In this document: one piece after another, positions 2,984-34,677 of the stretch
Numbering within the stretch: position 1 is the first letter of the stretch
Layout: the number at the start of each line of letters is the position of its first letter
DNA from: a virus
IMG/VR virus record: IMGVR_UViG_3300010260_000001
Strand: one strand, 5' to 3'
DNA: 34,677 nt
Made by a program: the position numbers and the translations under genes
Notes under the pieces: model-generated
Database searches by the model: none
What the model was told of the DNA's origin: nothing
The model's input: the letters and a program-made list of their open reading frames with translations, nothing else

Positions 2984-4120
2984 ATGGCAAACAGCTTACC
3001 GTTTAATGCCGTGGCAGTAGACGGAGAGTACGACAGGGTATATAAAGCCGAGGATTGGGCGTGGTACTTTGCTACTTTCATTGCAAACGGCATTTTTCCA
3101 AAGCCGAGCGACGGGCTACAGGTGGTAGCTTACAGCGGCATGGAAATAAGAGTAAATGCAGGCTATGCCTTTATAAACGGCTACGCCTTTAGAAATCCTG
3201 CAACGCTTAGCGTAACACTGGATACGGCAGAGGGAGCGCTTAACAGGGTGGACAGGGTAGTAGTTCGCTGGGATTTGCCGCAAAGAGATATGTATATTGC
3301 GGTGCTGAAAGGCACACCGTCTGCAAAGCCGACAGCAACGGCAGTAACCCGCACTACGGAAATATGGGAGCTTGCGCTTGCAGATATTTACGTAGGCAAG
3401 GGCGTAACAAGGATACAGACGCAGAATATCACAGACCAGCGGTTTAATAGTGCAGTCTGCGGTATCGTGACGGGGACGGTGGAAGAGATAGACGCAAGCG
3501 TGCTTACAAAGCAGTTTACGGACTTTTTCAACACCTACAGCGCAGCCGTGCTGGACGAGTTCAGCGCATATAAGCAGAACATGGAAAAGTACCTTACAGA
3601 GATTGCGGGCGTATATGACAGCTACGTAAGCAAGACAGAGGGCTTATTTGCACAGTATGAGAGCCAGTTTAACGAAAGGTACAGCAGTTTTGAAAGCACG
3701 CTTGACAACTGGGACAAGGAACTTTTAAGCGCCTATACAGACTTTATGGCAAAAATTAAGCTATTCCAGTCGGACGCTGAAAACGAATTTAACACATGGT
3801 TTGAGAGTATCAAGGACAAGCTGGGCGAGGACATAGCAGGCAGCCTGCAACTGCAAATTGAAGAGCTGGCAGCAGCAATGCAGGAAGTGAAAAAGCAGGC
3901 AGAGGCAGGCACGAAAGAAACCAAAGAGGCAATAGCAGCGCTGGACGAGCGGCTTAAGAGAGTAGAAAGCGGCTGGGGCATTGACTATAAGCATGACGCT
4001 GTATTGGGTTTGTGCTATATGGGTGCAGCATACATGAGCCAGCATTACGAAAGAACAGTAGAAACGGCAGTGTTAGGGGCTACCTACGTGGGTAATTCCT
4101 ATCTTGCAAATACATTTTAG
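2984..4120 (+). CDS. tail fibre / baseplate structural protein with a coiled-coil region; family not securely recognised
   Basis: 378-aa ORF in the tail tip module. The central segment is rich in heptad-like E/K/Q/L stretches. It follows the recurring gaaagtgaggta ribosome-binding motif. Confidence 0.45.
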   Translation: MANSLPFNAVAVDGEYDRVYKAEDWAWYFATFIANGIFPKPSDGLQVVAYSGMEIRVNAGYAFINGYAFRNPATLSVTLDTAEGALNRVDRVVVRWDLPQRDMYIAVLKGTPSAKPTATAVTRTTEIWELALADIYVGKGVTRIQTQNITDQRFNSAVCGIVTGTVEEIDASVLTKQFTDFFNTYSAAVLDEFSAYKQNMEKYLTEIAGVYDSYVSKTEGLFAQYESQFNERYSSFESTLDNWDKELLSAYTDFMAKIKLFQSDAENEFNTWFESIKDKLGEDIAGSLQLQIEELAAAMQEVKKQAEAGTKETKEAIAALDERLKRVESGWGIDYKHDAVLGLCYMGAAYMSQHYERTVETAVLGATYVGNSYLANTF

Positions 4121-4134
4121 AAAGGCGGCAGACC

Positions 4135-4572
4135 ATGAAAGGATTTCCTAAAGTATTAAAGACAAAAGAGGACTATTACAACTGCCTTGCTATGGTAGCA
4201 AGCGGAGAACTGGCAGCAGCAGACTTACTGGCAAAAATCGAGAGTGCAGAGAACCAGCGCTATATTGAGTGCGGCGTAGCAGCTGTAGAGGAAGAGAAAA
4301 AGGCGGTTACGGTATATTACTGCGACGAGGCAACAGTAGGTATGAAATTTGTAGCAGGCGACGTATCCGGTACGGTGCAGGGAGTAACGCATATCCAGAC
4401 AGACGAGGCAGCGGCAGCAGGAGAGGCAGGAAACGACAGAACAGCCCTTACACTTTCCAAAGCGGTAAAAGCGGGCTGCAAGGTAATTGCGCTGGAACGC
4501 ACAGACACCGTGGCAGGAATGACAACAGACGACATTGCAGCACTGAAAGGAGTATTAAAGCAGTATGAGTAG
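4135..4572 (+). CDS. hypothetical tail-module protein
   Basis: 145-aa ORF. Its stop overlaps the start of the DGR target gene, which suggests translational coupling. Confidence 0.5.
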   Translation: MKGFPKVLKTKEDYYNCLAMVASGELAAADLLAKIESAENQRYIECGVAAVEEEKKAVTVYYCDEATVGMKFVAGDVSGTVQGVTHIQTDEAAAAGEAGNDRTALTLSKAVKAGCKVIALERTDTVAGMTTDDIAALKGVLKQYE

Positions 4573-5707
4573 ATTATTAGTGGACGACGTTACAAAGACC
4601 GACGCAAGGGCGCTTTTGAACGTAAATAAAATGGCTACAATCAGCGATATTGTAGCACCGAGTAATGAGTACATTTACGCCAGCGGAGCAAATGAGCTGA
4701 CCGTAGTAGAGGGTTGCGTAATTGCTGTGGGCGGCGCTGGAATTTTCAAGACAGCAAATACAATTCTTACGGCTGCTAATCTGGACGCAGGCAGCGCTTT
4801 TGCGGTAGGTAAAGACTATTACGTATATATCTGCGACAGCAGAATTGACAGCGCAGACGAGAAATACGTAATTTCCCTTAACTCTACATACCCGACAGGT
4901 TGGAACGCTACAAACAGCCGTAAAATTGGCGGCTTTCATTATGGACGCTGCCGCAAGGTGGACAGCAATTTGCAGCCGCTTAATGGCAGCAGTGTTATTT
5001 TTGGCACTGGCTGGGAAAGTGCAGTAAGCAACGGCATTGTACCACGTTCTGTATGGACACTGGGACACCGCCCGAAATGCAGCCCAGAGGGTATGGTATA
5101 TTTAGGCGGCGGTACATGGGTAGATATTTACCTTAATTCTGACGACGGGGCAAAGGGCTTGAAATCAGAGTACGGCTGCGCACCTATGACGGGTACAGAA
5201 AGCATGAACTGGTACAACTTTGTAGAGCGTCTGGCAAAGAGCGGTAAGCGTCTGCCGAACTATGCGGAGTTTTGCGCCTATGCTTTTGGCAGCCCTGCCG
5301 GACTGGATAACGCAAATACAAACGCATGGAGCGCCACCAGCAATACAGGCAGAGGCGTAACAGGCAGCGTGGTAAATGCCGTTTCTTCCGTGGGCGTTGT
5401 AGATGCCGTGGGGCGTGTCTGGGAGTGGCTGGACGAGCTTATTACAAGAGCAGAACACGCCACAAATGCAGACTACCACGCAAGCGTAGCGTGGGGCTGG
5501 GACAAGAAAAGCCCATTGAACACAGGCGAGAAGCCTTACGACGTTGGTAACATTTACCAGTATTACGCATATTCTCTGGCGGCGCTGATGGCGGGCGGCA
5601 ACTGGAGCAATGGGGCGAGTTGCGGCGCTCGTGCCGTGAGTTGCGCCAGCTACCCGTGGTATGTCGATGCGAGCGGTGGCGCTCGTGGGGCGTGTGACTC
5701 TCTGTAG
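4565..5707 (+). CDS. DGR target protein: putative receptor-binding tail protein with a C-terminal C-type lectin / FGE-sulfatase-like fold carrying the variable repeat
   Basis: 380 aa. Motifs RLPNYAEF and GRVWEWLDE are typical of the CLec/FGE fold. The last ~42 codons (5574..5699) match the template repeat with adenine-specific differences. Confidence 0.9.
   Translation: MSRLLVDDVTKTDARALLNVNKMATISDIVAPSNEYIYASGANELTVVEGCVIAVGGAGIFKTANTILTAANLDAGSAFAVGKDYYVYICDSRIDSADEKYVISLNSTYPTGWNATNSRKIGGFHYGRCRKVDSNLQPLNGSSVIFGTGWESAVSNGIVPRSVWTLGHRPKCSPEGMVYLGGGTWVDIYLNSDDGAKGLKSEYGCAPMTGTESMNWYNFVERLAKSGKRLPNYAEFCAYAFGSPAGLDNANTNAWSATSNTGRGVTGSVVNAVSSVGVVDAVGRVWEWLDELITRAEHATNADYHASVAWGWDKKSPLNTGEKPYDVGNIYQYYAYSLAALMAGGNWSNGASCGARAVSCASYPWYVDASGGARGACDSL
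5574..5699 (+). repeat. DGR variable repeat (VR), 126 nt, ending 5 nt before the target gene stop codon
   Basis: Ungapped alignment to 6135..6260 gives 113/126 identities. Twelve of the 13 mismatches fall at TR adenines. Confidence 0.92.
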
Positions 5708-5708
5708 A

Positions 5709-5729
5709 CGGCGGGCGAAAGCCCAGCCG
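5709..5729 (+). promoter_or_regulatory. GC-rich hairpin with a GAAA tetraloop just downstream of VR (candidate DGR target-recognition hairpin)
   Basis: cggcgggc-gaaa-gccc(a)gccg forms an 8-bp stem with one bulged A. It starts 10 nt after the end of VR homology. Confidence 0.6.
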
Positions 5730-5747
5730 GATAAACGGGGGTAAGGC

Positions 5748-6104
5748 ATGGACATACAGACAAAAACAGATATTATACACCAGAAAATATACGATTTTCT
5801 GCTATATATCTATCCTCTGCTTACGAAGTACCCGAAGTATGAGAAATTCAGCTTACAGACGGCGACCAGAAACGCAATTCTTGAAATGCTGCAAGAGGTT
5901 ATAAAGTGGGATAAGACGGCAACGAAAAGCCACTTATACACGGTAGATACGGCATTGCAGGAAAGTAAAGAATTGCTGCGGCTGGCGCATGATTTGGAAT
6001 ATAGCGCCATGAACGCACGGCACTACGGCGAGAGCTGCCGCAAGCTGAAAGAAATAGGCGTTATGCTGGGAGAACTGATAGAAGAGGTAAAGACCAGAAA
6101 ATAG
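5748..6104 (+). CDS. avd: DGR accessory variability determinant (Avd, four-helix-bundle family)
   Basis: 118-aa basic helical protein lying between VR and TR. The motif YPLLTKYPKYEKFSL is typical of Avd-type four-helix-bundle proteins. Confidence 0.8.
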   Translation: MDIQTKTDIIHQKIYDFLLYIYPLLTKYPKYEKFSLQTATRNAILEMLQEVIKWDKTATKSHLYTVDTALQESKELLRLAHDLEYSAMNARHYGESCRKLKEIGVMLGELIEEVKTRK

Positions 6105-6134
6105 CAGGATATGGGGCAGCTGCTTACTTACAGC

Positions 6135-6260
6135 CTCTGGCGGCGCTGATAGCGGGCGGCAACTGGAACAATGGGGCGAATTGCGGCGCTCGTGCCGTGA
6201 ATTGCAACAACTACCCGTGGAATGTCAATACGAACATTGGCGCTCGTGGGGCGTGTGACT
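6135..6260 (+). repeat. DGR template repeat (TR), non-coding
   Basis: 126-nt repeat of the VR containing 26 adenines. Read in the VR frame it is rich in AAC/AAT codons. It sits between avd and the RT gene. Confidence 0.92.
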
Positions 6261-6430
6261 TAGTGAGAACATTACAGGCACAGAGTTCTACGGAATACTG
6301 GCAAGGACTTAGAAAAGGATAAGACCGAGTGTTTAATATCCTATAGTCAGAGCGGCTGTCCCGCCGTGAGGCAAAGAGAAAAAATACGGCTGCTGGTTAG
6401 TAGCTACGGCGAAAGGCAGGAGCTTAATAC
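6261..6430 (+). ncRNA. TR-to-RT spacer, probably part of the DGR template RNA
   Basis: 170-nt non-coding interval between TR and the RT start with no credible ORF. Assignment rests on the analogous position in the Bordetella phage BPP-1 DGR. Confidence 0.4.
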
Positions 6431-7492
6431 TTGAAGAGAGTAGGATACATTACCGATAAGGACGGGCGGCACATTACGCTTTTAGAGGCTATGGGCGACT
6501 ATGGAAACGTACAGAAAGCCTATAACAAAGCCAGAAAGTGTAAGCGCCACAGAAAAGACGTACTGATTTTTACGAAAGACAAAGAGGAAAACTTAGACAA
6601 GGTGCGGGAAGATATTCTAAACCTTGCCTATGAGCCGAGCGAATACCATTACTTTAAGGTGTACGAACCGAAAGAGCGGCAGATAATGGCGCTGCCGTTC
6701 TATGACAGGGTGGTACAGCACGCCATAAACAACGTGTTAGAGCCTATATTTGATAAGCGGTTTATATCGCAGTCTTACGCCTGCCGGAAAGGTAAAGGTA
6801 TGCATGCTGCATCTGATACATTAAAAGAGTGGCTGTATGAGTGGAACAAATACCACCCAGACCAGCCGCTTTATGCTATCAAGGCAGACATACACCATTA
6901 TTTCCAGAGCATAGACCATGCGATATTAAAGGCTGAAATACGTAAAGTTATAAAAGACGCTGGGGTACTGGCATTGCTGGACAGGATAATAGACCACAAC
7001 GGCAATATGCCGGACGGCGTAGGGATACCAGTAGGAAACCTTACCAGTCAGTTATTTGCAAATATCTATCTGGACGCATTAGACCAGTTTATTAAGCATG
7101 AGCTGGGCGTAGAGGCGTACATACGTTATATGGACGACTTTGTAATATTAAGCCCAGACAAGGAACAGCTGCGCAGCTGGCTTGCACGGATAGAGCAATT
7201 TTTAAGGGAAGAGCTTAAGTTAGAGTTTAACCCGAAAACTACCATACTGGCAGCAAAGAACGGTATAGACTTTGTAGGCTACAAACACAGGGCGACGCAC
7301 AGGAAAGTACGAAGGGACAGCATAAAGCGTATAAAGCGTACTATCAAGAAGTGCGAGAGCGGGAAAATCACAAAAGAGCAGTTACAAAAGAGTATACAGA
7401 GCTGGACGGGACACGCAGGACACGCCGACAGCTATAACCTACGAAAGAAAATAGAAACGCTGGCAGAGGCAGCCATAGAAAAGGCTGCTTAA
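6431..7492 (+). CDS. DGR reverse transcriptase
   Basis: 353 aa with a TTG start. RT motifs present: YACRKGKG, IKADIHHYFQSIDH, GIPVGNLTSQLFANIYL (the GxxxSQ motif characteristic of DGR RTs) and RYMDDFV. Confidence 0.95.
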   Translation: MKRVGYITDKDGRHITLLEAMGDYGNVQKAYNKARKCKRHRKDVLIFTKDKEENLDKVREDILNLAYEPSEYHYFKVYEPKERQIMALPFYDRVVQHAINNVLEPIFDKRFISQSYACRKGKGMHAASDTLKEWLYEWNKYHPDQPLYAIKADIHHYFQSIDHAILKAEIRKVIKDAGVLALLDRIIDHNGNMPDGVGIPVGNLTSQLFANIYLDALDQFIKHELGVEAYIRYMDDFVILSPDKEQLRSWLARIEQFLREELKLEFNPKTTILAAKNGIDFVGYKHRATHRKVRRDSIKRIKRTIKKCESGKITKEQLQKSIQSWTGHAGHADSYNLRKKIETLAEAAIEKAA

Positions 7493-11084: not shown

Positions 11085-12322
11085 CGTCGTATATGGGGAA
11101 AGAACAGGAACGAAAGAGAGGTAGCAGAAATGGCGAATAAGAAAGGCAGCCACCAGCTGACGAGGGCAGACCGTATAAGTCTTGAGGCGTTGAAAAAAGC
11201 AGGGCATAGCGTGATAGAGATAGCGGAGCAGCTGGGCGTACACCGTAGCACTATATATAATGAGCTTAAGAGAGGGCAGTATATGCACCGAAACAGCGAC
11301 TATACGGAAGAACTGCGCTATAGTCCAGATATTGCACAGGAAAAGGCAGAGGAAAACTTAAAGGCGAGAGGTACACAGCTTAAAATAGGAAATGATATTG
11401 CATACGCAAATTACATAGAGGATAAAATAGTAAATGAAGATTACAGCCCAGCGGCGGTACTGGGAGAGCTGAAAGCGCAGGGAAAAGAGGGGGACTTTTC
11501 CGTAACGGTATGCGTAACGACCTTATACAGCTACATTGATAAGGGCATTTTCCTTAAGCTGTCTAACAAGGATTTGCCAGTAAAGAAGAATAAAAAGCGG
11601 AAATATAAGAAAGTGCAGCGGCAGCAGTCAAGGGCAGCAGCAGGCGAGAGTATAGAGAAACGCCCGAAAGAGATAGATACACGGGAAGAGTTCGGCAACT
11701 GGGAAATGGACAGCGTTTTAGGCAAGCGTGGAAAGTCAAAAAATACGCTGCTGGTGCTGACAGAGCGGAAAACCAGAAACGAGATTATATTTAAGCTGCC
11801 AGACCATACAGACGAGGCAGTAGTAGCGGCGCTGGATAGATTAGAAAGAAAATGGGGCGCTGATATGTTTAAGCGGGTATTTAAGACAATCACGGTAGAC
11901 AACGGCAGCGAGTTTGCAGACGCAGAGGGCTTGCAGCGTTCTATTATCAACGAGGGAGAAAAGCGTACAAAGGTATATTACTGCCACCCTTATAGTAGCT
12001 GGGAGCGTGGCACGAATGAGGTAACAAATAAGATGATACGCCGGAAGATACCGAAAGGCACAAATTTTGACGACAGGACAGAGGAAGAGGTAGAGAGTAT
12101 AGAGAACTGGATAAACGGATACCCACGCAAAATACATGGCTACCATTCAGCGGGGGAACTATTCAAGGAAGAGGTAAAGCAGCTTGCATAACAACGGATA
12201 CAGGGAGCGTGAGAGGCTGGCAGCAGTGGCAGCCTTACTACTGCGCTGCCTAAAAGTGAAAATATACAATAAAACAGGCTGCGTATTGTGCAAAATGGCA
12301 AAACGATAAAAACACGAAAAAA
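11085..12322 (+). mobile_element. IS30-family insertion sequence candidate; boundaries approximate and inverted repeats not confidently identified
   Basis: Contains an intact IS30-type transposase gene. Only a weak 7-9 nt inverted match (ttttcgt at 11081 against acgaaaa at about 12315) marks possible ends. Confidence 0.3.
11130..12191 (+). CDS. IS30-family DDE transposase
   Basis: 353 aa. N-terminal HTH IAEQLGVHRSTIYNELKR. DDE region NWEMDSV...ITVDNGSEF...HPYSSWERGTNEVTNKMIRR. Confidence 0.9.
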   Translation: MANKKGSHQLTRADRISLEALKKAGHSVIEIAEQLGVHRSTIYNELKRGQYMHRNSDYTEELRYSPDIAQEKAEENLKARGTQLKIGNDIAYANYIEDKIVNEDYSPAAVLGELKAQGKEGDFSVTVCVTTLYSYIDKGIFLKLSNKDLPVKKNKKRKYKKVQRQQSRAAAGESIEKRPKEIDTREEFGNWEMDSVLGKRGKSKNTLLVLTERKTRNEIIFKLPDHTDEAVVAALDRLERKWGADMFKRVFKTITVDNGSEFADAEGLQRSIINEGEKRTKVYYCHPYSSWERGTNEVTNKMIRRKIPKGTNFDDRTEEEVESIENWINGYPRKIHGYHSAGELFKEEVKQLA

Positions 12323-12336
12323 TGTCGATTTTAATG

Positions 12337-12365
12337 TTGACATTTTTAGTGATAAGTTTTAGAAT
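12337..12365 (+). promoter_or_regulatory. sigma70-type promoter candidate
   Basis: TTGACA at 12337..12342, a 17-nt spacer, and TAGAAT at 12360..12365. It is bracketed by the 10-bp inverted repeat tgtcgatttt (12323..12332) and aaaatcgaca (12367..12376). Confidence 0.5.
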
Positions 12366-13141: not shown

Positions 13142-13215
13142 GTGCCGTTAGTTCAGTTGGTTAGAGCAGCCGCCTCATAAGCGGCAAGTCGTGGGTTCAA
13201 GTCCCACACGGCACA
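13142..13215 (+). tRNA. tRNA with CAT anticodon (Met; Ile2-lysidine type cannot be excluded)
   Basis: Manual cloverleaf. Acceptor GTGCCGT/ACGGCAC, D-stem GTTC/GAGC, anticodon stem GCCGC/GCGGC with loop CTCATAA, variable loop AAGTC, T-arm GTGGG-TTCAAGT-CCCAC, discriminator A. No CCA is encoded. The G1-C72 pair argues against an initiator tRNA. Confidence 0.9.
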
Positions 13216-17171: not shown

Positions 17172-17301
17172 AAGCTATACAGCTTTGAAATACTATAAAA
17201 ATTATAAGCTATGTATGGCGCAAAGTCAAGAAAATTAACGGGCGGGCAGCCAGTTTTAACACTTGATAAAAGTATTAACGAACCGACAGAGAGGTAGATA
17301 T

Positions 17302-18069
17302 ATGCCATACGTAGAGAGGGTAACAAAAGCGGGGAATACGATAGAGATAGAGAGGTACTTTACCAGCAGATACAAAAAGAAAGGTATCAGCAGAGGGGAT
17401 AAGGTAAAGCCAACAAAAGAAGAGCAGGAGAAAGTAAACACCAGACAGGCAGAGAGAAAGTTAAGGATACTCATAAATGCGAACTATGGTTATGGGGACT
17501 ACCATTTAGTGCTTGATTATATCCGCAGGAAAGGGCAGCCAGACAGAACGCCGGAACAGATGCGGTACGACATAGACGTATTTTTGAGGGAGTGCAGAAA
17601 GGAGTACAGAAAAGCAGGGTTAGAGTTCAAATACATACACGTTATGGAGATAGGCAAGAAAGGTGCGAGGCATCACCACCTTGTAGTAAATAAAATTGAC
17701 ACAGAGATTTTACAGCGCTGCTGGTATAAGGCATACGAGGGGCATAACAGGGTAAAGGTATTTCCTCTGGACGACAGCGGCAACTATGCAGAGCTGGCAA
17801 ATTATTTAATCAAATACACAGGAACGCACAAAAAGGGTACTGACGGAGCATTACAGGGCAAGCGCTGGAATTGCAGCAAGAATTTAGTAAGACCAGAGCC
17901 GGAGTATCACATAATTTCAGACCGTGAGTATTTCAAGAAAGAGCCAAAGGCAATAAAGGGCTATTACGTAGACAAGAACAGTGTGAGCATGGGAGTACAT
18001 AGCCCAGAGTATTACGGCTATGGGTATTTAAGATACACCTTAGTAAAAATAACGGATAAGGGGGGATGA
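17302..18069 (+). CDS. HUH-type replication initiator (Rep-like) candidate
   Basis: ARHHHLVVNK supplies the HUH motif and ANYLIKYTG a Y-x3-Y motif. The ATG at 17302 has a gagagg ribosome-binding site. Confidence 0.5.
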   Translation: MPYVERVTKAGNTIEIERYFTSRYKKKGISRGDKVKPTKEEQEKVNTRQAERKLRILINANYGYGDYHLVLDYIRRKGQPDRTPEQMRYDIDVFLRECRKEYRKAGLEFKYIHVMEIGKKGARHHHLVVNKIDTEILQRCWYKAYEGHNRVKVFPLDDSGNYAELANYLIKYTGTHKKGTDGALQGKRWNCSKNLVRPEPEYHIISDREYFKKEPKAIKGYYVDKNSVSMGVHSPEYYGYGYLRYTLVKITDKGG

Positions 18070-18070
18070 A

Positions 18071-18472
18071 ATGCAGATAATCAAGGGCATTGCCATTGTA
18101 GTAGTGTTGATAATAGCCGGACTGCTGGCGCTGATTGTGGCAGCATATCTGGCGCTTAGAATTGCGGCGACTATTTTTGAACAGCAGGAGAGCTGGAAAG
18201 ACAACGGCAGCAGAAAGGGCAGAAAACATGATAGAAAAATTAAATACTGGTTATTCCAGAAAGGCAAGGACTGTAAGCGCTGCTGCCTGCGGTGCAGATA
18301 CTACGATATATGCCGCTGGGATGTACTGGGAAATGCAGGACTACAAAGCGAGGAAACAATAACGCTTTTGGCGATAGAGAACAGCAAGCCGCATAAGGAC
18401 GGGCTGCTTTTCAGAATTTGCCAGTATGTAGAATTTAAGCAGAGAGCGAGGCGAGAAAATGAGAAACTTTAG
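18071..18472 (+). CDS. hypothetical membrane protein with a Cys-rich segment
   Basis: 133 aa with a strong aagggggg ribosome-binding site, an N-terminal transmembrane helix, and CKRCCLRCRYYDIC. Confidence 0.45.
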   Translation: MQIIKGIAIVVVLIIAGLLALIVAAYLALRIAATIFEQQESWKDNGSRKGRKHDRKIKYWLFQKGKDCKRCCLRCRYYDICRWDVLGNAGLQSEETITLLAIENSKPHKDGLLFRICQYVEFKQRARRENEKL

Positions 18473-18869
18473 ACTGGACGACGAAAGCGGGCATCAAGAG
18501 GCATTATTTAGCTGGGCTGCATACAGAACAGGGATTATGCCGGAACTGCAATATATGTATCATGTGCCAAACGGCGGCAAACGTGATAAAGCAACAGCAG
18601 CGGTGCTTAAGAGGCAGGGCGTAAAGGCTGGCGTGCCGGATATTATGCTACCAGCTGCAAGGGCTGGGTATCATGGGCTTTACATAGAGCTTAAGGCAGG
18701 CGAGAACACGACGACCAAGAAACAGAAAGAGTGGTTAGAGTATCTGCGGCAGCAGGGCTATTATACCGACGTCTGCTACGGCTGGCAGCCAGCAGCGCAG
18801 CTGATAGAGCAGTATTTATTACATTCAGACGAGCTTACAAAAGAGCAGGAAACAGTAACCATGCGTTAG
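18459..18869 (+). CDS. VRR-NUC domain nuclease
   Basis: GVPDIML...LYIELKAGEN..TKKQKEWLEYLRQQGY...VCYG is the classic VRR-NUC pattern. Confidence 0.85.
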   Translation: MRNFRLDDESGHQEALFSWAAYRTGIMPELQYMYHVPNGGKRDKATAAVLKRQGVKAGVPDIMLPAARAGYHGLYIELKAGENTTTKKQKEWLEYLRQQGYYTDVCYGWQPAAQLIEQYLLHSDELTKEQETVTMR

Positions 18870-18897
18870 AGGCGAACGCAGGAAAGAGAGGCAAAGA

Positions 18898-19671
18898 ATG
18901 AAAACAATAAGCATTTTGAATTTAAAAGGTGGCGTAGCCAAGACCTTTACAGCGGCAAACATGGCGTATGAGATTTACAGGAGAGGCTACAGGGTGCTGC
19001 TGATTGACAATGATAAGCAAGGGAATTTAAGCAAGGCGTATAGCAGATACGACGCAGAGAGCGTAGCACCAGTTACAAGGTTGCTGGCTGGGGACTGGCA
19101 GGGAGCAACAGAGCTGATACAGAATACAGATTACGTAGGGCAGCAGTGCTGCATAGATATTGTTACGTCGAATATGTCACTTTTTGGGGCTACGTGGAAT
19201 TTGACAAAAGAGGACAGCGAGAACCAGACAGAACGCTATAAGAGATTTGCAGACATTATGGGCGGCTTTTATGATTACTGTATCATTGATAACCCGCCGG
19301 ATATTGGGCTTAATGTCATAAATGCGCTGGCAATCACGGACGAGGTAATAGTACCCGTAAAGGTGGACGAGGACGCTTTAGAGGGGCTGGACATTGTGAC
19401 AGAGCAGATAGAGGACGCAAAGGCATTTAACCCAGCATTAAAGCTGGCAGGCGTACTGATTACGTCATACCAGAACACAGACGGCGAGGCAGCAGGCGTA
19501 GAGTGGCTGGAACAAAAGACAGATTTTAATATTCTGGGTATTATTCGGTATTCCAAGAAAGTAGCAGAAAATACTTTCATGCGTAAGCCGATTTATGAGT
19601 ATAGCCCATGCTGCGGAGCGGCGCAGGGGTACAAGAAATTTGTAACAGCGTATACAGGGAAAGCGAGGTAG
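18898..19671 (+). CDS. parA: ParA-family partition ATPase
   Basis: Deviant Walker A LKGGVAKT, together with LIDNDKQGN and IIDNPPD. Confidence 0.9.
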   Translation: MKTISILNLKGGVAKTFTAANMAYEIYRRGYRVLLIDNDKQGNLSKAYSRYDAESVAPVTRLLAGDWQGATELIQNTDYVGQQCCIDIVTSNMSLFGATWNLTKEDSENQTERYKRFADIMGGFYDYCIIDNPPDIGLNVINALAITDEVIVPVKVDEDALEGLDIVTEQIEDAKAFNPALKLAGVLITSYQNTDGEAAGVEWLEQKTDFNILGIIRYSKKVAENTFMRKPIYEYSPCCGAAQGYKKFVTAYTGKAR

Positions 19672-19676
19672 CAAGC

Positions 19677-19874
19677 GTGGCACATAAAGAGAGATTATGC
19701 GTTTACTGGCATTGCCGCAGGACTGGCGGTACGGAGTGCTGGAACTGGGGCGGCAAATTTGCAGGGCAGAAATGCCCGCAAAGCGACGCTTGCGAGCATT
19801 GGAGAACGTGCGAAATGTGCAACGGAGTAATGGGACAGTGTAAGAAAAAACAAAGGATTGAGAAAGCGAGGTAG
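19677..19874 (+). CDS. small Cys-rich protein (65 aa, GTG start)
   Basis: An exact gaaagcgaggta lies 6 nt upstream of the GTG. The protein has ten Cys residues. The track start at 19608 would overlap parA. Confidence 0.45.
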   Translation: MAHKERLCVYWHCRRTGGTECWNWGGKFAGQKCPQSDACEHWRTCEMCNGVMGQCKKKQRIEKAR

Positions 19875-19879
19875 AGAAT

Positions 19880-21148
19880 ATGGCAAAGTTTGGTATTAAC
19901 GACATTCTGAACGCAAAGACGAAAGCAGCAGGGCAGCAGGCACAGACGGACGGATACAAAGAGATTTATTTAAGCCCTTACGAGGTAAAGGCAGCGCAGG
20001 AGAATACGCACCAGAAATTAGAGAACATAGAAGAGCTGGCAGACAGCTTTTTACACGTAGGACAGGAACAGCCTACAGTATTGGCGAGAGTAAACGGGGA
20101 ATACCGTATAATCGACGGACACAGACGTAATGCGGCAAATATTTTGAACTTAGAGCGGGGGCATAAGGAGTATGAGAAAGTGCTTTACCGCTTTATGGAT
20201 ATGAGCGAGGCAATGTATGAGCTGCGCTTATTGGCTGGCAACGGATATACGCAGGAACTTACAGCCTATGAAAAAACCAGATTAGTAGAGCGCACCAAAG
20301 CTGCACTTATCAGAGCCAAGGAAGAGGACGGCTTAGAGATACAAGGCAAAATGCGTGATTTAGTGGCGGCTATGATAAACGAAAGCAGCACAAACGTAGC
20401 CAGAATGGACGCAATCAACAACAACGCAACGCCGGAGATTAAAGAGCAGCTGAAAGAGGGCAATTTAGGTATCACTGCTGCATACGAGGCAGCAAAGCTG
20501 GACGAGGACGAGCAGAAAGAAGTAGCGGAAAAAGCAGCAGCGGGCGAAAATGTGAGGGCAAAGGAAATAGCGGAAAAGGTAGCAGAGAAAAAGGCAGGGG
20601 ACGATTACGAAACACCGCACCCAGAAAGCATAACGTCTTTGTGCTATTCCTGCCAGAAATACAAGGACTGCAACGTAAAAACGGGAACGTGCCAGAAATG
20701 CGACCAGTACATAAACAAGGCAGAGGCTGAAAAGACAGACGAACAGCGATACAGCGAAGAGCAGGACGCTATAGACCGCCAGACAAAGAAGAAATTGCAG
20801 GAGCGGGCAGACGCAGAAAAAATGGAGCATCTGCCAAGCGAGGGAAACACAGAGCATAAGCAGCATGAGGTAAAAATAGTGGCATCTTATTACGAGGACG
20901 TAGTAAGCGGGAAAAAGAGCTTTGAGCTGCGGAAGAATGACAGAGGCTATAAACAGGGCGACAGCCTTAAAATGCTGGAATTTAAGGACGGTAAGCACAC
21001 AGGGCGCACGATTGATGCAGATATTATTTATATGCTGGAAGATTATACAGGGCTTACAGAGGGTTACTGTATTCTGGGTATCAGAGTAACAGACTATACG
21101 GGCAAGGTGTCCGAAACGGACACGGAAAGCGGGGCGGTAAATGTTTGA
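19880..21148 (+). CDS. ParB-like nuclease/partition domain protein fused to a C-terminal DUF3850 (ASCH-like) domain
   Basis: N-terminal QPTVLARVNGEYRIIDGHRRNAA (ParB/Srx). A central Cys cluster CYSCQKYKDCN..GTCQKC. C-terminal VKI...YYEDVVSGKKSFELRKNDRGYKQGD (DUF3850). Confidence 0.8.
   Translation: MAKFGINDILNAKTKAAGQQAQTDGYKEIYLSPYEVKAAQENTHQKLENIEELADSFLHVGQEQPTVLARVNGEYRIIDGHRRNAANILNLERGHKEYEKVLYRFMDMSEAMYELRLLAGNGYTQELTAYEKTRLVERTKAALIRAKEEDGLEIQGKMRDLVAAMINESSTNVARMDAINNNATPEIKEQLKEGNLGITAAYEAAKLDEDEQKEVAEKAAAGENVRAKEIAEKVAEKKAGDDYETPHPESITSLCYSCQKYKDCNVKTGTCQKCDQYINKAEAEKTDEQRYSEEQDAIDRQTKKKLQERADAEKMEHLPSEGNTEHKQHEVKIVASYYEDVVSGKKSFELRKNDRGYKQGDSLKMLEFKDGKHTGRTIDADIIYMLEDYTGLTEGYCILGIRVTDYTGKVSETDTESGAVNV
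21107..21123. repeat. 17-nt perfect palindrome GTGTCCGAAACGGACAC, copy 1
   Basis: Identical to 30235..30251. Lies in the 3' end of the parB-like gene. Confidence 0.95.
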
Positions 21149-32562: not shown

Positions 32563-34677
32563 ATGGCTGATAAAACAGACAATATTAAAACCAAACTTAG
32601 TTTTGACGGCGAGGCACAGTATAAAGCAGCCTGCAAAGAGATTAACAGCACCCTTAAGCTGCTTAACTCTGAAATGAAACTTGTAACAGCAGAATATAAG
32701 AGCAATGCAAGTGGTGCAGAGGCGCTGAAAGCCAAGCAGGAAGTATTAAAAAAGACCTACGACGAGCAAAAGAAAAAGGTAGAAGAAACAGAAAAAGCCC
32801 TTGCAAAATGCAAAGAGGCTACAGGAGAGAACAGCGAGGCAAGTAAGAAACTGGAAACACAGCTTAATTACCAGAAAACAGCACTTGCAAACACAGAAAC
32901 AGAATTAGGAAAGACAGCTACAGAGCTGGACAAAGCAGAAAAAGCCGCAGACGGAATGGGAAACGAGATAGAGGACAGCGGCAAACAGGCAAAAGAGGCA
33001 ACAAGTAAATTTAGTGGATTTACAGAGGTTGCAAAAAAAGTGGCGACAGCTACAGCGGCAGCAGTGGCAGCAATCGGCACAGCAGCCGTAGCAGCAGGCA
33101 AAGCACTTTACGATATGGCGAGTGATACGGCATCTGCGGGCGACCAGATAGACAAGGAAAGCCAGAAAATGCAGATAAGCGCAAGCCTATATCAACAATT
33201 AAGCTATGCGTGCGAGAGAAGCGGCAGCAGCGTAAGCGACTTAACCAAAGGTGTTAAGAACATTACTACAGAGCTGGGAAAAACGGCAGAGGGAGCGAAA
33301 GGCGCAGGGGCAAGTTTTGAGGCTATCGGCGTATCCCTTAAGAATACGGACGGGAGCGTAAAAAGCACAGAGCAAGTGCTTTTAGAGAGCATAGACGCAC
33401 TGGCGGGCATGGAAGATGAAACAAAGCGAAATGCAGCCGCACAGGATATTTTTGGTAAAAGCGCAGCAGAACTTTTACCGCTGCTTAATTCTGGTTCAGA
33501 CGGAATTAAGCAGCTTATGGACGAAACAGAAGAATACGGCATGATAATGTCAGACGAGGCAGTAGCAGCAAGTGCAGCGTTTGAGGACAGCTTAAGCCGT
33601 TTGCAGTGGACGTTTAGCGGCGTAAAAAATAGCATCACTGGGGAAATGCTGCCGTCTATAACAATGATTATGGACGGATTGAGCGACCTTATGGCAGGAC
33701 AGGACGACGCAGGCGAGAAGATAAAGCAGGGCGTTACTGGAATTATCAATAATATTACACAAATGATACCGCAGATACTGGAAGTAATAACAAATATTGC
33801 AGGGGCAGTGCTGGAAAGCGCACCCTCTATTATGCAGGCGCTGGCGCAGGGAATTATAACGGCATTGCCTACGTTATTGCCGACAATCACGAGCGTAATA
33901 ACCAGCATAGCAACTATGCTGATACAGTTACTGCCGCAGATTTTAGAGGCGGGTATGCAGATACTCATAAGCCTTGCGCAAGGTATCGCACAGGCATTAC
34001 CTACGTTATTGCCGACAATCGTAACAGTGATTACAAATATTGTAACCATGCTGATAGAAAATATACCGTTACTGATAACGGCAGCACTACAGCTGATTAC
34101 AGGACTGGCGCAGGGACTTGTAGCGGCATTACCCGTACTGATTGAGGCACTGCCAGAAATTATAACGGCTATCATCAATGCACTGGTTGAGGGCATACCG
34201 CTTATTATCGAAAGTGCGGGCGATATTATAGTTGCGCTGATTGACGGCATCATAGATGCAATACCGCTTTTGATTGCAGCAATGCCGCAGATTATAGCAG
34301 CCATTGTAACAGGGCTGATTACGGGACTGCCTAAGATTTTGACAGCCGCAGGAAAACTGGTAACAACAATCATAAATAAAATAAAAGAGCTGCCTACTCT
34401 GATACCGCAGGCAATCGCAGCGGGAGTGGAAAAAATAGCAGAGTGGGGCGCAAATATGCAGGAAAAAGGCGGAACAGTTATAACAGACTTTGTAACAAAG
34501 GTTATAGAGATTATAAAGGAGCTGCCGCAGAAAATCTGGAATGGTATAGTAGGCGCAGTTACCAAAGTGGCTACGTGGGGCGCAAATATGCAGACCAAAG
34601 CCAAAGAGGTAATGAACACAATGCTTACGAATATCGTAACGATTGTAAAAGAAACGCCTGCTAAAATCTGGAACAGC
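32563..34677 (+). CDS. tail tape measure protein, N-terminal part; open at the window end and continuing at base 89
   Basis: The track has no + ORF here because there is no stop before the window end. My translation gives MADKTDNIKTKLSFDGEAQYKAA..., a coiled-coil N-terminus, the core ASDTASAGDQIDKESQKM...FEAIGVSLKN...IFGKSAAELLPLL, then hydrophobic ALPTLLPTI repeats. Confidence 0.9.
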   Translation, partial: MADKTDNIKTKLSFDGEAQYKAACKEINSTLKLLNSEMKLVTAEYKSNASGAEALKAKQEVLKKTYDEQKKKVEETEKALAKCKEATGENSEASKKLETQLNYQKTALANTETELGKTATELDKAEKAADGMGNEIEDSGKQAKEATSKFSGFTEVAKKVATATAAAVAAIGTAAVAAGKALYDMASDTASAGDQIDKESQKMQISASLYQQLSYACERSGSSVSDLTKGVKNITTELGKTAEGAKGAGASFEAIGVSLKNTDGSVKSTEQVLLESIDALAGMEDETKRNAAAQDIFGKSAAELLPLLNSGSDGIKQLMDETEEYGMIMSDEAVAASAAFEDSLSRLQWTFSGVKNSITGEMLPSITMIMDGLSDLMAGQDDAGEKIKQGVTGIINNITQMIPQILEVITNIAGAVLESAPSIMQALAQGIITALPTLLPTITSVITSIATMLIQLLPQILEAGMQILISLAQGIAQALPTLLPTIVTVITNIVTMLIENIPLLITAALQLITGLAQGLVAALPVLIEALPEIITAIINALVEGIPLIIESAGDIIVALIDGIIDAIPLLIAAMPQIIAAIVTGLITGLPKILTAAGKLVTTIINKIKELPTLIPQAIAAGVEKIAEWGANMQEKGGTVITDFVTKVIEIIKELPQKIWNGIVGAVTKVATWGANMQTKAKEVMNTMLTNIVTIVKETPAKIWNS
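34374..34677 (+). repeat. upstream (more degenerate) copies of the 132-nt tape measure repeat; left boundary approximate
   Basis: KELP(T/Q)...WGANMQ(E/T)K units precede the junction with the same 132-nt period. Confidence 0.6.
34590..34677. repeat. 88-bp terminal duplication of bases 1..88 (circular assembly overlap)
   Basis: Base-for-base identity of 34590..34677 with 1..88. Confidence 0.95.

Follow-up and report, generated by a model that had tools for sequence, protein, structure and literature searches.

A probable functional BPP-1-type diversity-generating retroelement directed at an Mtd-like tail protein gene in a phage of gut Lachnospiraceae

The virus record IMGVR_UViG_3300010260_000001 of IMG/VR is a stretch of DNA of 34,677 nucleotides (nt), which we analyzed whole and refer to as the window. 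Positions 4565 to 7492 of its plus strand carry the parts of a diversity-generating retroelement (DGR), namely, a target gene ending in a variable repeat (VR), a gene for the accessory protein Avd, a noncoding template repeat (TR), and a gene for a reverse transcriptase (RT). A sequence-only reading of this DNA had proposed a complete DGR with these four parts in the order known from phage BPP-1 (target-avd-TR-RT); we saw the same order, and the positions that it gave for the open reading frames (ORFs), the VR, and the TR all hold on the plus strand. The features found at the locus are those by which DGRs are recognized: an RT with the appropriate motifs and sequence affinity, a TR/VR pair that differs specifically at adenines, an Avd protein, target-site elements, and RNA elements. 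All three ORFs, those of the target, Avd, and the RT, are intact.

Genes of the retroelement

The first gene (positions 4565 to 5707) codes for a protein of 380 amino acids (aa), which we assign as the DGR target, an Mtd-like tail protein with a predicted receptor-binding role. It matches the Pfam family mtd_2nd ("Mtd second domain"; 3e-42) and a PHROG tail protein family (4e-102), and in phmmer searches its residues 43 to 380 align to the sequences of the Mtd crystal structures (2.5e-23). Comparison with Mtd over the whole length using hhalign gave a value of 99.5% at 36% identity. The sequence-only reading had seen motifs of the C-type lectin (CLec)/FGE type in this protein. Scans against Pfam and NCBIfam retrieved no FGE-sulfatase, CLec, or lectin family for it, and its match to OvoA was insignificant (E=0.13); the CLec assignment stands by way of the direct homology to Mtd. 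Judged by the same homology, the VR is at the C terminus of a predicted ligand-binding protein of the CLec fold, and a receptor-binding function is likely by analogy with the biochemistry of BPP-1. The gene is also where it had been placed in the phage genome, at the end of the tail module; it is preceded there by the tape measure and Dit genes, by the gene of a minor tail protein, and by another two ORFs of the tail region.

The second gene (5748 to 6104) codes for a 118-aa accessory variability determinant, Avd. It scores 95.9 bits against the NCBIfam equivalog model DivGenRetAVD, for which the curated cutoff is 80, and it matches Pfam bAvd (1.6e-20) and the PHROG family "Avd protein of DGR" (9e-32). 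Its identity to the Avd of BPP-1 is 23% in a pairwise BLASTP alignment, and phmmer found no match to it among PDB sequences.

The third gene (6431 to 7492) codes for the RT, a protein of 353 aa whose TTG start codon is 8 nt downstream of an AGGAG. The two motifs reported from the sequence alone, GNLTSQ and YMDD, were both found, the former as part of VGNLTSQ, together with an equivalent of Arg74 (R74) of the BPP-1 RT (bRT). The known signature of DGR RTs is [I/V/L]GxxxSQ (PMC7826257). The protein matches the PHROG RT family at 3e-141 and is 37% identical to BPP-1 brt by tblastn. The PDB entry that it matches best is 8ub7_A (E=2.9e-56), whose 328-aa chain bears the deposited name "Reverse transcriptase" and which we take to be bRT; group II intron RTs and the chains labeled "retron-type" follow at only 1e-17 to 1e-16, and defense RTs are weaker. 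This ranking bears out the proposal that the RT is of the DGR type and not of the group II or retron type. Among NCBIfam models, the best hit is the group II model TIGR04416 (146 bits, cutoff of 300); retron, Drt, and Abi models gave weak hits, all far below their cutoffs, and no DGR-RT model was among the hits. An Rfam scan of the window at the gathering score recovered a tRNA only, with no group II intron and no retron RNA, and Rfam contains no DGR RNA family that could have been matched. The neighbors of the RT gene are avd and the tail protein gene.

The repeat pair and its diversification

The VR (5574 to 5699) encodes the last ~42 residues of the target, and the TR (6135 to 6260), which is noncoding here, is a direct repeat of it, 126 nt long, free of gaps, and offset by 561. 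Recomputing the alignment returned the 13 differences that had been counted before, 12 of which fall on the 26 adenines of the TR (hypergeometric p=5.7e-9). The sole mismatch at another base in the window is TR T6237, read as G5676 in the VR, and it adjoins a changed adenine. In the VR reading frame, 25 of the 26 TR adenines are at codon position 1 or 2, mostly in AAC and AAT codons, which is the layout that the sequence-only reading had described; the TR and VR peptides that it quoted are likewise correct, and computation agrees with it that no substitution of TR adenines can create a stop codon. The mutable codons, 14 in number, mix AAT and AAC with an extra ATA, TAC, and ACG and allow ~1.9e14 possible protein variants. 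Alignment of the BPP-1 TR to that of the window (68% identity over 108 nt) places AAY/ATY (Asn/Ile) codons at the same 11 positions, from which it follows that the target and Mtd have homologous variable surfaces. An adenine-masked search of both strands of the window found no second VR.

Relatives were collected by RT scans, which gave 80 loci from IMG/VR and 79 from genomes. The same preference for adenines pervades this set: the 80 unique TR/VR pairs from relatives are mismatched at 893 of 1888 sites with a TR adenine (47%) but at only 23 of 6582 other sites (0.35%), an adenine-specific pattern with an odds ratio of 256. The expectation set beforehand, that VR heterogeneity would be confined to positions matching TR adenines, was put to these related genomes rather than to reads, and the counts uphold it. 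At the 19 loci whose RT is at least 97% identical to that of the window, there are 19 distinct VRs beside what is nearly a single TR, and 25 of the 26 VR positions matched to TR adenines are polymorphic. So many different VRs next to a near-constant TR indicate that the lineage is actively diversifying. The direction of transfer is evident from single-nucleotide polymorphisms (SNPs) at nonadenine sites of the TR, which recur in the cognate VR and therefore mark a flow of information from TR to VR. As for its timing, the window and the 19 close relatives are 1 to 2% apart in the flanks and ~60% different at the adenine sites of the VR, ~30 times the flanking value; such a difference at so low a flank divergence implies very recent turnover of the VR.

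The changes at adenine sites, as read from sequences already filtered by selection, are A to G in 63%, A to T in 23%, and A to C in 14% of cases. The predominant misincorporation by bRT in vivo is dC (PMC12875486), in agreement with the excess of A-to-G changes in this lineage, and the in vitro figure for bRT is similar to the overall adenine rate in this lineage, which is near 50%.

The relatives also show irregular behavior of the repeats. Among the 23 nonadenine differences between TR and VR, 18 are directly beside a TR adenine, as against an expectation of 30% (p=2e-6). Such neighbor differences occur in the window (5676/6237) and at the related loci L010, L013, L016, L027, L031, L034, L038, L045, L048, L050, L087, L095, L096, L101, and L114, and two forms recur, AT to NG (at TR index 15, for example, ATA has become GGA in seven loci) and GA to TN. 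Some of these changes are synonymous ones at third positions, and these favor a part played by mutation over a purely selective origin; the neighbor differences may reflect errors of the RT at neighboring positions, selection on the variable codons, or both.

In four independent relatives, TR adenines have been lost at AAY positions: 3 in L015, 12 in L052, 5 in L088, and 9 in L116. The VRs of L015, L052, and L116 have the same base as the TR at every site of a lost adenine, and in L052 and L116, extra changes confined to the VR are interleaved with those shared with the TR. Assembly chimeras were considered as the origin of the adenine-depleted TRs of L052 and L116 and were rejected, since shared and unshared sites alternate within a few nucleotides. 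The pattern suggests that adenine-mutagenized sequence was written back into the TR, by VR-to-TR conversion or by homing of cDNA into the TR, and that further homing followed; we found no description of such write-back in the literature searched. At one further locus (L024, positions 4446 to 6812), the VR and TR are merged into one copy and avd is absent, either through a recombinational deletion or through collapse in assembly. At two others (L005 and L014), the 3' half of avd, the TR, and the RT gene are 98 to 99% identical to the window, and the sequence upstream of mid-avd is unrelated; the target and VR are missing from these sequences, which may be a matter of mosaicism or of misassembly.

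RNA and DNA elements around the repeats

Candidate RNA helices were taken from comparison with BPP-1 and with the description of the bRT-Avd-RNA complex by cryo-electron microscopy (cryo-EM), and they were tested on 55 distinct relatives. Across four RNA elements with 40 base pairs in total, 99% of the cells are paired, as against at most 50% in slid controls, and 11 of the 40 pairs show compensatory changes, as against at most 3 in those controls; none of 500 shuffles reached the observed values.

The first element is a long-range duplex resembling the cPRT-stop duplex. Its 5' strand, GGGGCAGCUGCU (6113 to 6124), lies between avd and the TR, and its 3' strand, AGCGGCUGUCCC (6351 to 6362), is in the spacer between the TR and the RT gene. 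Both strands were recovered in the minimum free energy (MFE) fold and by RNAalifold; 4 of the 12 pairs are compensatory, and 97% of the cells are paired. When read by eye, the pairing GGGCAG...CUGUCC of BPP-1 equals the core of this duplex.

Inside it is a predicted template:primer duplex in which positions 6256 to 6263, at the 3' end of the TR and just beyond it, pair with the spacer strand CCUAUAGUCA (6341 to 6349). The 8 pairs are formed in 99.8% of the cells, and 2 of them are compensatory, the primer strand covarying with the TR 3' end in the clade L103-L108 (UGAUU:AAUCA). The predicted priming adenosine, A6349, is part of an (A/G)UCA-G motif that is conserved in all relatives and in BPP-1, where the corresponding nucleotide is A56 of the spacer (Sp A56) in GGUCA-G. 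The predicted first templated nucleotide, G6255, directly precedes the TR strand of the duplex (6255 to 6263 with it included); it is the middle G of a conserved Cys codon, TGT, and has the same position as G117 of the BPP-1 TR. Of all TR adenines, A6258 alone is constant in every VR. We attribute this to its location within the predicted duplex of primer and template, on the 3' side of the point where the cDNA is predicted to begin, where it would not be copied, and on that account the usable adenines number 25 and not 26.

Two stem-loops, both recovered by RNAalifold, are also in the spacer. The one just 3' of the TR (6278 to 6302) has a stem of 9 bp, interrupted by a bulge and a mismatch, and a UACG tetraloop; its 9 pairs, of which 4 are compensatory, are formed in 99.6% of the cells. 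It is a candidate for the Avd-binding stem-loop and agrees with the published description of that element (bioRxiv 10.1101/2023.10.23.563531). The other (6388 to 6424), conserved and at the 3' end of the spacer, includes the ribosome-binding site of the RT gene, whose AGGAG pairs with upstream sequence; its 11 pairs are formed in 99.6 to 100% of the cells, and 1 of them is compensatory. This stem-loop might couple RNA folding or assembly of the ribonucleoprotein (RNP) with translation of the RT.

On the DNA side, the VR ends in a G+C-rich segment, TGGCGCTCGTGGGGCGTGTGACT (5677 to 5699), that resembles the initiation of mutagenic homing (IMH) element. It is the same in VR and TR and is constant in the relatives, in which no variation was seen even at the A of index 123, and an IMH-like function is probable for it by comparison with BPP-1. 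The VR is followed at a distance of 9 nt by a potential hairpin or cruciform, CGGCGGGC-GAAA-GCCC(A)GCCG (5709 to 5729), with a DNA folding energy of -9.9 kcal/mol (z=-2.5). The relatives retain a G+C stem of 7 to 10 bp, in which the substitutions are compensatory, with a loop of G(A/G)AA or AAAA. Homing in BPP-1 requires a G+C stem of 7 to 10 bp with a GRNA loop, located 4 to 34 bp after the VR, and the hairpin of a phage-related DGR of Eubacterium rectale was already shown in 2011 (PMC3240598). The hairpin of the window matches this homing element, and a role in homing is likely in light of the biochemistry of BPP-1.

Interpretation, phage context, and relation to known systems

We propose that a transcript comprising the 3' flank of avd, the TR, and the 170-nt spacer would fold with the RT and Avd into an RNP, in which the long-range duplex 6113-6124/6351-6362 would bracket the template. 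Spacer nucleotide A6349, paired beside U6256 of the TR, would prime cDNA synthesis in cis, starting at G6255 and proceeding 5' through the TR. The RT would be faithful at U, C, and G and would misincorporate at about half of the 25 template adenines. The mutagenized cDNA would then replace the VR of the tail gene (5574 to 5699), guided by the G+C-rich 3' end common to both repeats and by the GAAA hairpin (5709 to 5729). The outcome would be a redrawing of 14 residues on the CLec face of the Mtd-like protein, by which progeny phages might bind new receptors on the host surface.

That the element is a functional DGR of the BPP-1 type appears to us very probable, although several points weigh against it. 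The strong evidence for activity is at the level of the lineage, coming from related genomes and not from reads of this genome. Differences between VR and TR at bases other than adenine do exist, 1 of them in the window and 23 across the pooled pairs. The AlphaFold2 model of the target has a predicted local distance difference test (pLDDT) score of 29.5, on an alignment of 22 sequences with 79 to 97% identity, and the CLec fold is therefore predicated on the sequence homology to Mtd; the receptor and the effect on host range are both putative. In the primer duplex, compensation is seen in the one clade L103-L108, so that the support for this helix consists of homology and possibly a single event, and the priming site and the roles of the RNA elements are assigned through homology and covariation, with a presumed biochemistry like that of BPP-1. 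Scans for promoters and terminators yielded no signal above chance.

These considerations leave room for other explanations. The DGR could be real and the protein that it diversifies could bind something other than a host receptor, for instance mucus, dietary glycans, or some other component of phage or cell, in which case tropism would be unchanged. Two further tail-tip ORFs upstream of the target (2984 to 4120 and 4135 to 4572) could carry the receptor-binding function, and for most DGR targets of the gut, the function is, to our knowledge, unproven. However, the target is homologous over its full length to Mtd, which is the proven receptor-binding protein of BPP-1, and has the same layout of variable residues; the tail module ends with its gene; and near-identical phages with differing VRs are integrated in several bacterial species. 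We accordingly regard this alternative as very unlikely. That the DGR is a fossil, formerly active in the lineage and inert in this genome, with VR differences that were merely inherited, would accord with the decay seen in some relatives, in which TRs have lost adenines and in one case VR and TR have collapsed; it is highly unlikely for the window itself, where the ORFs are intact with their catalytic motifs, the TR retains all of its adenines, the RNA and DNA elements are all intact, and the contrast between the flanks and the adenine sites of the VR implies very recent turnover. The most distant alternative makes the RT part of another retroelement or of a defense system (group II intron, retron, or Abi/DRT) and the repeat an ordinary duplication diverging under selection or recombination. 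The top NCBIfam hit to a group II RT and the weak Drt and retron hits point that way, but all of them fall below the curated cutoffs, 8ub7 is ahead of the group II and "retron-type" RTs by ~40 orders of magnitude, Avd is present, no group II intron or retron RNA was seen with Rfam, and the odds ratio for adenine-specific mismatches is not a product of ordinary divergence. Taken together, the Rfam, NCBIfam, PDB, and mismatch results refute a group II intron, retron, or defense identity for the RT, and we give this explanation next to no credence.

The phage that carries this DGR is a temperate, siphovirus-like phage of gut Lachnospiraceae. Positions 1 to 88 of the window are repeated exactly at 34590 to 34677, and this terminal direct repeat of 88 nt indicates a circular genome of 34,589 bp, in which the tape measure gene crosses the junction. 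Genes for the terminase, portal, and major head proteins are present, as is one for a single-stranded-DNA-binding protein (SSB), and downstream of the target the DGR is followed by holin and endolysin genes. Genes for a Rep-like protein (REP_ORF2-G2P), a VRR-NUC nuclease, a ParA ATPase, and a ParB-like/DUF3850 protein are grouped at 17263 to 21148; this phage, which integrates, thus also has functions for replication and partition in the style of plasmids.

The only integrase or recombinase found among the scanned ORFs is an IS30-family transposase encoded on the plus strand at 11130 to 12191 (NCBIfam, 236 bits with a cutoff of 80; HTH_38 and rve domains). In five integrated copies, the homology to the window ends ~157 nt after the stop codon of this gene, with the junction near 12348 to 12352. 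A lone IS30 recombinase with the end of homology beside it makes the phage appear to be IS30 bound, of the "IScream" type, and present here in its circular form. A tRNA-Met (CAT) gene is at 13142 to 13215 on the plus strand, ~800 nt past the predicted integration junction. Integrated copies (L082, L084, L085, L087, L091, and L120; also L099) are ~94 to 96% identical to the window over ~12.3 kb, each with its own VR, and are found in isolates assigned to different species and named genera, among them Pilosibacter fragilis, Coprococcus ammoniilyticus, Roseburia yibonii, and Clostridium sp. OF09-36. Matches in metagenome-assembled genome (MAG) bins of Phascolarctobacterium and Segatella come from short contigs, and errors of binning may account for them. 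A joint reading in which TR write-back and neighbor errors of the RT occur and the DGR together with IS30 lets one ~94%-identical phage lysogenize at least six species in different named genera is tentative, and we rather doubt that it holds in full; we did not find it described in the literature searched.

Compared with the DGR of BPP-1 (mtd-avd-TR-brt), that of the window has the same gene order, and in both, a G+C hairpin with a GAAA loop follows the VR, the stem in the window being distinguished by a bulged A. BPP-1 is a podovirus infecting Bordetella, whereas the phage of the window has a Gram-positive host among the gut Lachnospiraceae and a siphovirus-like tail module with a tape measure and Dit. 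The two elements further differ in that a 30-nt gap bearing one strand of the long-range duplex separates avd from the TR in the window, whereas the TR abuts avd in BPP-1; in the length of the spacer (170 nt versus about 140); in the number of mutable codons (14 versus 12); and in the RT, which in the window starts with TTG and has V at the first position of the signature motif, where that of BPP-1 has I.

DGRs placed between structural and lysis modules and aimed at C-type-lectin-like tail proteins have been reported for gut Bacillota prophages, including the IS30-bound IScream prophages (PMC12934698; PMC12247996). By their description, the latter share with the phage of the window the placement of the DGR, a VR in a C-type-lectin-like tail protein, and, apparently, an IS30-family transposase at the end of the prophage, and their close relatives similarly span different Clostridia taxa, giving a wide lysogenic distribution. 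They are larger, at 39.5 to 47.2 kb versus 34.6 kb, and their targets have "no obvious homologs" or a BppU-like N terminus, unlike the target in the window, which is a clear homologue of Mtd. The RTs of Vibrio VP585, Aeromonas phiARM81mr, Bacillus BalMu-1, Clostridium phage Saumur, and Faecalibacterium FP_Lagaffe are 39 to 46% identical to that of the window over >90% of its length, the nearest RT in the deposited phage collection being at 46%. Megablast against the deposited phages returned no match to the cassette; with no such match and no close RT, the lineage is without a deposited cultured representative in that collection.

BPP-1-like DGRs acting on phage tail proteins, those of gut Bacillota prophages included, are already well described, and the element studied here is not a new type of system. 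What it adds is a BPP-1-like DGR that is complete and evidently active, in a phage lineage that is very common among those of human-gut Lachnospiraceae, and the presence of prophage copies in cultured isolates of Roseburia, Coprococcus, Pilosibacter, and others makes experiments feasible. Moreover, its ~80 natural TR/VR pairs and 55 spacer variants provide independent comparative support for RNA elements known from the cryo-EM work on BPP-1, namely, the priming adenosine, the stop duplex, and the tetraloop stem-loop.

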